Sequence record: PQ249397
Direction: 5' to 3' (one strand)
DNA from: Escherichia phage Pu-Krd-SF3
Length of the DNA stretch: 64,000 bases
The notes under the pieces were generated by a model. The model saw only the letters and a list, made by a program, of their open reading frames with translations. It made no database searches and was not told the DNA's origin. Below are positions 54,080 to 55,305 of this stretch, in pieces. Numbering within the stretch: the stretch's first letter is position 1; each line of letters opens with the position of its first letter. The translations under genes were made by a program, and so were the position numbers.

Positions 54080-55108
54080 ATGTCATCAATACCTTGGATT
54101 GATAATGAGTTTGCATACCGTGCATTAGCTCATTTACCTAAATTCACACAAGTAAATAATAGTTCAACTTTTAAATTGCGGTTTAGATGTCCTGTTTGTG
54201 GAGATTCAAAAACCGACCAAAATAAAGCCCGTGGATGGTATTATGGTGATAATAATGAAGGAAATATTCATTGTTATAACTGTAACTATCATGCACCAAT
54301 CGGAATATATTTAAAGGAGTTTGAACCCGATTTATATCGTGAGTATATCTTTGAAATAAGAAAAGAAAAAGGTAAAAGTCGTCCAGTAGAAAAACCTAAA
54401 GAACTTCCTAAACAACCTGAGAAGAAAATAATTAAATCTCTTCCATCATGTATTAGATTAGATAAACTGGCGGAAGACCATCCAATTATAAAATACGTAA
54501 AAGCTCGTTGTATTCCAAAGGACAAATGGAAATATCTTTGGTTTACAACCGAATGGCCTAAATTAGTTAATAGCATAGCACCGGGAACATATAAAAAGGA
54601 AATACCTGAGCCTCGTCTTGTTATTCCAATTTATAATGCTAATGGAAAAGCTGAGTCTTTTCAAGGACGTGCATTAAAGAAAGATGCTCCTCAAAAATAT
54701 ATCACCATCAAAGCTTATCCTGAGGCAACAAAAATCTATGGTGTTGAACGAGTTAAAGATGGTGATGTATATGTTCTAGAAGGACCTATAGATTCACTTT
54801 TTATTGAAAATGGTATAGCTATTACAGGTGGTCAATTAGACCTAGAAATTGTTCCATTTAAAGATAGACGTGTGTGGGTTTTAGATAATGAACCTCGTCA
54901 TCCTGACACTATTAAACGAATGACTAAATTAGTTGATGCAGGAGAAAGGGTTATGTTTTGGGACAAATCTCCATGGAAATCAAAAGATGTTAATGATATG
55001 ATTAGAAAGGAAGGTGCAACCCCTGAACAAATTATGGAATATATGAAAAATAATATTGCTCAAGGGTTGATGGCTAAAATGCGTCTATCTAAATATGCTA
55101 AGATTTAA
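54080..55108 (+). CDS. 61: DNA primase gp61
   Basis: N-terminal zinc ribbon CPVCGDS…CYNC, TOPRIM-like region (VLEGPIDSLF…LDNEPRH); 342 aa. Confidence 0.95.
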   Translation: MSSIPWIDNEFAYRALAHLPKFTQVNNSSTFKLRFRCPVCGDSKTDQNKARGWYYGDNNEGNIHCYNCNYHAPIGIYLKEFEPDLYREYIFEIRKEKGKSRPVEKPKELPKQPEKKIIKSLPSCIRLDKLAEDHPIIKYVKARCIPKDKWKYLWFTTEWPKLVNSIAPGTYKKEIPEPRLVIPIYNANGKAESFQGRALKKDAPQKYITIKAYPEATKIYGVERVKDGDVYVLEGPIDSLFIENGIAITGGQLDLEIVPFKDRRVWVLDNEPRHPDTIKRMTKLVDAGERVMFWDKSPWKSKDVNDMIRKEGATPEQIMEYMKNNIAQGLMAKMRLSKYAKI

Positions 55109-55305
55109 ATTAACCCAACTAAAGCAAATGCTAAATCTACGAATGTATCAAGAGTAATTACTGGAATACTAACGCCATGAGCAAGAGCAACTGGCGATAA
55201 AACAAAATTCCAAAGTAAAATTCCTATCATAGCAGAAATAGTAAAAGCTATACGTTTTTTATTACCTTTTATGGCATTAACAAGTGCCATTAATTTTTGT
55301 ACCAT
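55105..55305 (-). CDS. small two-TM membrane protein (66 aa), convergent to primase
   Basis: ORF track minus strand; strong SD aaggagg 5 nt upstream of the ATG on the minus strand; hydrophobic IAFTISAMIGILLWNFVLSPVALA… and FVDLAFALVGLI. Confidence 0.6.
   Translation of the reverse strand: MVQKLMALVNAIKGNKKRIAFTISAMIGILLWNFVLSPVALAHGVSIPVITLDTFVDLAFALVGLI

Follow-up and report, generated by a model that had tools for sequence, protein, structure and literature searches.

A conserved small membrane-protein gene in reverse orientation between genes 61 and 56 of T-even phages

A small gene facing the primase gene

The interval between genes 61 and 56 was evaluated in a stretch of 64,000 nucleotides from Escherichia phage Pu-Krd-SF3 (sequence record PQ249397), in the following referred to as the window. 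It holds a small open reading frame (ORF) on the minus strand with a 66-aa product (MVQKLMALVNAIKGNKKRIAFTISAMIGILLWNFVLSPVALAHGVSIPVITLDTFVDLAFALVGLI). The substitution pattern and synteny of this ORF indicate a genuine protein-coding gene under purifying selection across at least six genera of the Tevenvirinae. A preliminary description of the same DNA had pointed to a minus-strand ORF of this length between the two genes, equipped with a consensus Shine-Dalgarno sequence (SD), converging on the primase gene against the direction of the early transcription units and lying in a window almost wholly devoted to the plus strand. This layout was recovered in all parts, with the following features:

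55105..55305, minus strand: coding sequence (CDS) of the small membrane protein, ATG start, 66 codons; PHROG 2024, orthologue of RB69ORF029w
55310..55316, minus strand: SD AAGGAGG, 4 nt ahead of the ATG of the small ORF
54080..55108, plus strand: gene 61 (DNA primase), convergent with the small ORF, the two stop codons sharing 4 nt
55377..55895, plus strand: gene 56 (dCTPase/dUTPase), divergent from the small ORF

With the start of gene 56 set at 55377 (not 55378), 71 nt separate the divergent starts of this gene and the small ORF. The plus strand hosts 67 of the 70 ORFs of at least 110 aa within the window. As spurious antisense ORFs in the vicinity reach 95 aa, the length of the small ORF is not significant by itself; what makes it significant is the SD together with its conservation and its location between two genes. 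The stretch is 100% identical in the Escherichia phages Pu-Krd-SF1, -SF2, -SF4, and -SF5 (Tequatrovirus), and in Pu-Krd-SF4, the one of these records inspected, the small ORF carries the annotation “hypothetical protein.”

Extension of the analysis to other phage genomes by tblastn retrieved the small protein from 692 phage records, in 685 of them at full length (at least 80% of the length). An identity of at least 80% was found in 502 records, compared with 501 records having a gp61 at least 95% identical to that of the window; consequently, practically all sequenced Tequatrovirus possess the small gene. The absence or disruption in close relatives that the preliminary description had considered was thus not observed, the ORF being intact in essentially all Tequatrovirus records. 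This includes T4 itself, where the copy (NC_000866, 17738..17938, plus strand, 91% identity) is situated within the 309-bp “empty” gap between dam and gene 61. A corresponding CDS is absent from NC_000866, from AF158101 and from the original 1984 record X01416, and no NCBI accession for the exact T4 sequence was found in the protein collection, while a T4 record annotated by Pharokka labels the copy as PHROG 2024. Two records show deviations. In the T6 record NC_054907 (L012, 2501-2503), ATT replaces the ATG with the SD being intact, and the annotated CDS begins at Met6; the triplet might serve as a rare start codon, genuinely attenuate expression or stem from a sequencing error. In the mutant T4 clone T4_7t1 (OL964745; L019, 1501-1699), frameshifts split the small ORF and also dam, which may represent an assembly error or else dispensability of both genes in the laboratory.

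Beyond Tequatrovirus, orthologues sharing 47-57% identity are found at the equivalent position of Mosigvirus (RB69ORF029w) and Gaprivervirus. By using distant family members as tblastn queries, further orthologues of 25-35% identity with retained orientation were located in Gelderlandvirus (Melville_024), Jiaodavirus (KPV15 gp050), and Kanagawavirus (Entb45_092, as well as a copy without annotation in PEi20); in the annotated ones among these, the stop codon overlaps that of the primase gene or lies within 20 nt of it. The comparison of the 61-56 interval across T-even genomes, as proposed in the preliminary description, therewith places the small ORF at the same slot in six genera, and its convergence on the primase gene is kept in T4, T6, RB69, VR25, Melville, KPV15, Entb_45, and PEi20. 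In the Gaprivervirus VR25 (L013), the slot between gene 56 and the primase gene hosts the tandem paralogues VR25_031 and VR25_032 (2495-2692 and 2701-2901), the second one having a non-hydrophobic tail rich in histidine.

On the protein level, the PHROG 2024 hidden Markov model (HMM) matched residues 2-66 along profile positions 1-65 of 65 (E=2e-30, 105 bits). Of 1.84 billion representative proteins searched with a profile, nine matched, all being small T4-like phage proteins or fragments save for one weak multi-stretch match (E=1.3e-4) to a 1255-aa protein, which was not inspected. Scans of the small protein against Pfam, NCBIfam, and PADLOC gave no match, a profile search of the PDB yielded an uninformative best E=0.18, and Foldseek against BFVD returned nothing informative. 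Nearly all of the hundreds of records label the gene “hypothetical protein,” and the few other labels are generic or unreliable transfers. The designation “putative head morphogenesis protein” given in RefSeq to the T6 copy was rejected, as were the labels “Holin” and “putative holin” in OE5505 and KP1079, which are automatic annotations without support. Labels of the T6 record are similarity transfers of doubtful reliability, since the gp61.1 homologue bears the identical label and the gene in the Soc position is described as resembling a terminase small subunit.

Coding evidence and interleaved signals

The surroundings of the start of the small ORF are densely packed with elements of both strands:

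55271..55300, plus strand: terminator-like hairpin ATGGCATTAACAAGTGCCAT then TAATTTTTGT, for gene 61 transcripts, inside codons 2-12 of the small ORF
55318..55342, plus strand: middle-promoter-like pair for gene 56, consisting of the MotA box TTGCTTTA (55318-55325), an 11-nt spacer and TATAAT (55337-55342)
55328..55335, minus strand: predicted late promoter AATAAATA, a 7/8 match to the T4 late promoter TATAAATA

The counterpart of the hairpin is annotated as terminator in the record of Yersinia phage fPS-2. It is kept in Tequatrovirus, not in most other genera: no terminator-like hairpin was found at the equivalent place in Mosigvirus, Gaprivervirus, and Kanagawavirus, and Gelderlandvirus (Melville, L015) has a different, stronger one there. 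The middle-promoter-like pair corresponds to P(M)16.53 of T4, annotated in X01416, which serves gene 56 and the oriA primer; a middle promoter is also predicted at the equivalent place of fPS-2. Its spacer encloses the late-promoter motif of the minus strand. Beyond the small ORF, no minus-strand terminator was detected over ~2.3 kb, so that a late transcript of the small gene would extend antisense into gene 61.

This accumulation of signals raises the question whether the ORF is translated at all. Its conservation might instead be due to opposite-strand signals, namely the gene 61 terminator and the promoters serving gene 56 or dam, or an antisense RNA to the primase mRNA might be the main product. 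The hairpin with its T-run within the first codons, the promoter elements abutting the SD and the missing terminator after the ORF would fit such a scenario. However, substitutions within the frame of the small ORF are of the coding type, on which grounds we rejected an explanation by regulatory signals only. The variable sites fall on codon positions 1, 2, and 3 in numbers of 22, 6, and 51 (third positions thus 51/79, second positions 6/79), and the ratio of nonsynonymous to synonymous substitutions (dN/dS, Nei-Gojobori) amounts to 0.1-0.3 within Tequatrovirus as well as between genera. Despite saturated synonymous sites, the frame is unbroken across genera with only a one-codon indel. In the Kanagawavirus gene pair, 22 of the 28 differing sites are third positions and the proteins are nearly identical. 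Furthermore, the protein is kept outside Tequatrovirus where the hairpin is not, and a strong SD is retained across every lineage examined. The probability of an untranslated ORF is therefore close to negligible; an antisense role could exist besides the coding function, yet it offers no explanation for the substitution and conservation patterns. The view of the preliminary description that this is a genuine gene for a small membrane protein, by all appearance translated, is in line with the conservation, the SD and the substitution pattern.

In respect to the time of expression, the ATAAATA core (the 7-mer core of TATAAATA, the T4 late promoter at -13 to -6) is located 12-24 nt upstream of the ATG in nine of the ten lineages examined. 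It is found in Tequatrovirus, Mosigvirus, Gaprivervirus, Jiaodavirus, and Kanagawavirus, although the flanks have diverged, and the 8-mer at the equivalent site of T4 is GATAAATA. The T at -13 of the late promoter is poorly conserved among T4 relatives according to Nolan et al. (PMC1524935). The transcript of the window is predicted to start near 55322 on the minus strand, equivalent to ~17722 in T4, resulting in a leader of ~17 nt. Known late genes of the window show a comparable arrangement, with TATAAATA occurring twice ahead of e (7210, 7223) and once ahead of soc (56718) at an SD spacing similar to that of the small ORF. Because the core precedes the SD in nine out of ten lineages, the small gene is probably transcribed late in a gp55-dependent manner. 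Within the window as a whole, the late-promoter motif (core ATAAATA) is depleted, with 19 sites on both strands (eight of them on the minus strand) compared with 41.7 ± 6.9 expected from dinucleotide shuffles, as could be the case if stray late promoters are selected against. The preliminary description had considered the orientation of the gene unusual. It does run against the early units; it is not strange per se, though, being the orientation of T4 late genes and accompanied by a conserved late-promoter core.

The only other credible minus-strand gene of the window is an HNH-type ORF (39558..40274, minus strand, 238 aa), which is preceded by a perfect TATAAATA at 40308-40315 (minus strand) and an SD and which, judged from these elements, looks like a late-expressed homing endonuclease.

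The upstream side of the small gene is a site of variable gene content. T4 and the window are collinear except for one point, where 899 bp comprising dam and its leader (L001, 3327-4225) stand against 20 bp (55317-55336); in T4, dam is inserted between the SD of the small ORF and the promoter of gene 56. This slot, empty in the window, is taken by dam in T4, by a homing endonuclease in both WL-3 and fPS-2, and by another ORF in Kanagawavirus. Direct repeats flanking the T4 dam cassette, which might account for its gain or loss, were limited to matches of 7-8 nt. The placement of a dam gene near this position in the preliminary description is right for T4, and its statement that the window lacks a methyltransferase with the DPPY motif was confirmed in all six frames, with a best tblastn match of T4 Dam to the window of E=4.4. 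The sole [DNS]PP[YFW] match in six frames, NPPY at ~31539 (plus strand) in an ORF at 31447..31899, has no similarity to T4 Dam. A T4-type Dam (at least 90% identity) was found in 182 records, ~36% of Tequatrovirus, opposed to a dam-less majority of ~64%; dam is thus an optional cassette in this genus. The idea of the small ORF as a replacement for dam was rejected, because T4 carries both. On the far side of gene 56, an ORF of 283 aa (55870..56721, plus strand) overlaps the end of this gene and occupies the position of segF (GIY-YIG) of T4. It has no Pfam match and is named “homing endonuclease” in the annotation of Pu-Krd-SF4; it may represent another type of mobile endonuclease in the segF slot.

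Architecture of the product and its possible role

The family shares a signature composed of a basic N-terminus with four to six Lys/Arg beside the transmembrane (TM) helix and no basic residues after it, a TM helix with an invariant W and a near-invariant N-F/Y, and a P-x-A-x-[A/T/S]-x-G-x3-P motif followed by a helix of ~16 residues that starts with an acidic residue. In the small protein, basic residues occur up to residue 18 at the latest, and the C-terminus reads AFALVGLI. Trypsin would yield LMALVNAIK as the sole peptide suited to mass spectrometry and otherwise a single hydrophobic peptide of 48 residues, which may account for the protein having escaped proteomics. An AF2 model calculated from a 7-sequence alignment consists of helices 2-14, 16-42, and 52-65 (pLDDT 81, pTM 0.55). 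The preliminary description had assigned two TM segments. One of these is a firm TM helix (residues ~19-42), with family-wide Kyte-Doolittle (KD) values of 1.5-2.4 (at least 1.87 in all but KPV15) and Wimley-White octanol sums of -3 to -11 kcal/mol (-6 or lower in all but KPV15). The second segment could not be upheld as such. Its Wimley-White octanol sums range from -2 to +1 kcal/mol; it is marginal in Tequatrovirus, Mosigvirus, and Gaprivervirus (KD 1.9-2.2, two acidic residues, -2 to -0.6 kcal/mol) and not TM-like in Gelderlandvirus, Jiaodavirus, Kanagawavirus, and the paralogue VR25_032 (KD only 0.8-1.2). For RB69ORF029w, one TM (21-41) and no signal peptide were predicted (Nolan et al., PMC1524935, supplement). 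As the C-terminal segment is marginal here and not TM-like in distant orthologues, the architecture of the family is most readily understood as a single pass with the N-terminus inside and an amphipathic tail in the periplasm or at the membrane interface, a two-TM form being at most a lineage-specific possibility.

A different interpretation of the N-terminal part follows from its likeness to the antiholin RI, the gene of which (rI, 14860..15153, plus strand) belongs to the same window. Residues 19-38 align in register with the RI signal peptide (8/20 identical, E=0.008 in a single comparison). The end of the RI signal peptide, LSFVLSPSIEA followed by N, is opposed to WNFVLSPVALA followed by H in the small protein, the RI site after A24 thereby falling opposite the A42-H43 bond. 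Cleavage of RI by LepB after A24 is experimentally proven (PMC8385771). Features resembling a signal peptidase I substrate are present in form of a KGNKKR n-region and the sequence P38-V-A40-L-A42 before H43, with small residues at -3 and -1 and a helix breaker at -5. The N-terminal 42 residues could accordingly be a long cleavable Sec signal peptide, cut between A42 and H43 to free an amphipathic peptide of 22-24 residues (HGVSIPVITLDTFVDLAFALVGLI) with activity in the periplasm. The conservation of the P-x-A-x-[A/T/S] site across genera (-5 P, -3 A, and -1 A/T/S, save for L at -3 in Mosigvirus: RB69, L010, L011) and the in-register alignment speak in favor of cleavage. Nevertheless, several genera carry Thr at -1, which makes a poor LepB substrate. 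The h-region of 19-24 residues exceeds the short h-region of a Sec signal peptide (about 7-15) and has the length of a signal anchor, with an n-region of 14-22 residues. The most invariant residues (W-N-F) would belong to the presumed signal peptide, an odd location in a disposable targeting sequence, and the prediction for RB69ORF029w was SignalP negative with one TM (PMC1524935). We consider the cleavage rather unlikely and, beyond that, regard it as highly improbable that the freed peptide is a new late periplasmic effector of T-even phages, e.g., a component of lysis-inhibition signaling or an envelope-active peptide. A conserved membrane remnant might in the case of cleavage have a second role.

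Taken together, the best overall explanation is a real T-even gene which is probably expressed late and whose N-in single-pass product may modulate a late envelope event, with a probability of roughly 0.6 in our estimate. The small gene would be transcribed by gp55-RNA polymerase from (A/G/C)ATAAATA, ~12-24 nt upstream of the ATG. The resulting protein of ~7 kDa would insert into the inner membrane in N-in/C-out orientation with its basic N-terminus (+4 to +6) in the cytoplasm, followed by a TM helix with the invariant W-N-F...P motif, a conserved juxtamembrane turn A-x-[AST]-x-G-x3-P and, on the periplasmic face, an amphipathic helix of ~16 residues. Very small single-pass membrane proteins generally act by binding a larger membrane protein. 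Since the invariant W, P, G, and P cluster in the outer half of the TM helix and the juxtamembrane turn, a specific contact surface appears plausible, via which the small protein may bind such a larger partner instead of forming a pore of its own. Membrane processes of T4 that are open to a late protein are lysis together with its inhibition (T, RI, RIII, spanins) and the initiation of proheads at the membrane. Among them, we tentatively suggest that the protein tunes the timing of lysis or lysis inhibition, most plausibly via the holin T complex. This role of a membrane-embedded modulator of a late envelope event is a candidate with the odds still against it. The mechanism is deduced from the anatomy of the protein, since there is no characterized homologue.

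Several observations weigh against this explanation. The lysis genes are distant: within the window, e is found at 7243..7731 (~48 kb away) and rI near 14.9 kb. Searches of Pfam, NCBIfam, PADLOC, PDB, and BFVD revealed no homology to characterized proteins, and the functional assignment draws on size, topology and presumed timing. On the side of the promoter, Gelderlandvirus has only ATTAAATA at the respective site, and the Tequatrovirus element lacks the first T; the list of late promoters of RB69 that Nolan et al. (PMC1524935) detected by HMM has no entry near RB69ORF029w. Moreover, the 61-56 interval is devoid of the small gene in Krischvirus, Kagamiyamavirus, Serratia phage 4S, and an Acinetobacter T4-like phage. 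The gene is for this reason accessory, though conserved within the T-even clade that infects Enterobacterales.

The small size, the hydrophobicity and the presumably late expression also invite the assumption of a holin, a pinholin or a toxin-like membrane permeabilizer, in the sense of the membrane-active factor considered in the preliminary description, holins likewise having at least one TM domain (TMD). A two-TM hairpin is conceivable from the KD value of 1.87 of the C-terminal segment in Tequatrovirus, and the holin labels of OE5505 and KP1079, unsupported as they are, point in the same direction. T4, however, is already equipped with holin T; the neighbors of the small gene are a primase and a dCTPase gene without linkage to an endolysin or lysis cassette; a charged C-terminal tail is missing; and the second hydrophobic segment contains two Asp and lacks TM-like character in Gelderlandvirus, Jiaodavirus, and Kanagawavirus. 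None of the results gives a holin- or toxin-like mode of action precedence over regulation. A permeabilizer is distinctly unlikely.

Its accessory nature and its restriction to phages of Enterobacterales might alternatively qualify the small protein as a membrane factor of defense or counter-defense, mediating superinfection exclusion or shielding the phage from membrane-acting abortive infection of the host. The gene diverges faster than its neighbor (~50-57% identity between Tequatrovirus and Mosigvirus vs. 74% for gp61), is duplicated in tandem in Gaprivervirus and has a neighborhood abounding in genes of this kind (sp, dmd). In contrast, Imm and Sp, which mediate exclusion in T4, are products of early genes while the small gene has late-type signals, neither PADLOC nor another family collection gave a match, and the text of the HIDEN-SEQ paper does not mention the locus. 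We thus judge this function unlikely and maintain the late envelope modulator as the preferred interpretation.

Relation to known systems and meaning

The closest relatives are the members of the PHROG 2024/RB69ORF029w family itself, which agree in family, slot, orientation and size, none of them being named or having an assigned function. RI is comparable as a small envelope protein acting on the holin at the periplasmic face, and RI 1-24 shares the FVLSP-x-x-x-A stretch in register, a similarity that is short and may be compositional. It differs in its globular periplasmic domain of ~70 residues and its cleaved, non-conserved signal peptide (PMC8385771), whereas the small protein continues for only ~24 residues past the site and has its TM helix marked by conserved residues. 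Class II holins and pinholins (S21-type, ~70 aa, two TMDs) resemble the small protein in their size, their hydrophobicity, their origin from phages and, probably, their late timing; in contrast to them, the small protein lacks the lysis-cassette linkage and the charged C-terminal tail and has a marginal or absent second TMD, and T4-type phages use the unrelated holin T. Imm and Sp of T4 are likewise small envelope proteins of T-even phages, with sp only 2 kb away in the same block. They are encoded by early genes on the other strand, Sp having a classical signal peptide and Imm two TMDs, and show no sequence similarity to the small protein. A single TM helix in N-in orientation and a short tail in the periplasm are further shared with regulators of the MgrB/AcrZ type and with Hok-type type I toxins, without homology. 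The former bind larger membrane proteins, while Hok damages the membrane.

The ORF as such is already on record in hundreds of genome entries, as RB69ORF029w since 2003 and as PHROG 2024, and our literature search found no discussion of it among the papers available; the DksA RNA-seq tables cover annotated genes only. It seems not to have been stated before that the reference T4 has the small gene in unannotated form, that it is a syntenic and selected gene across several Tevenvirinae genera, and that its conserved late-type signals are interleaved with the middle-promoter and terminator signals of the opposite strand.

As it stands, this adds one more uncharacterized small phage membrane protein and no new kind of system. 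T4 is the reference for a very large group of phages, and NC_000866 is used in transcriptomics, proteomics, CRISPRi and transposon screens. Analyses based on this record miss a selected gene present throughout Tequatrovirus, the product of which is probably made late and located in the membrane. The locus also illustrates how tightly T-even phages pack their signals, with a predicted late promoter in the spacer of an opposite middle-promoter-like pair and a terminator-like signal for the primase mRNA in the first codons of a reverse gene. In terms of phage biology, the small gene could add a component to the late envelope events of T-even phages, i.e., lysis timing, lysis inhibition or exclusion, a field that is itself still under revision.

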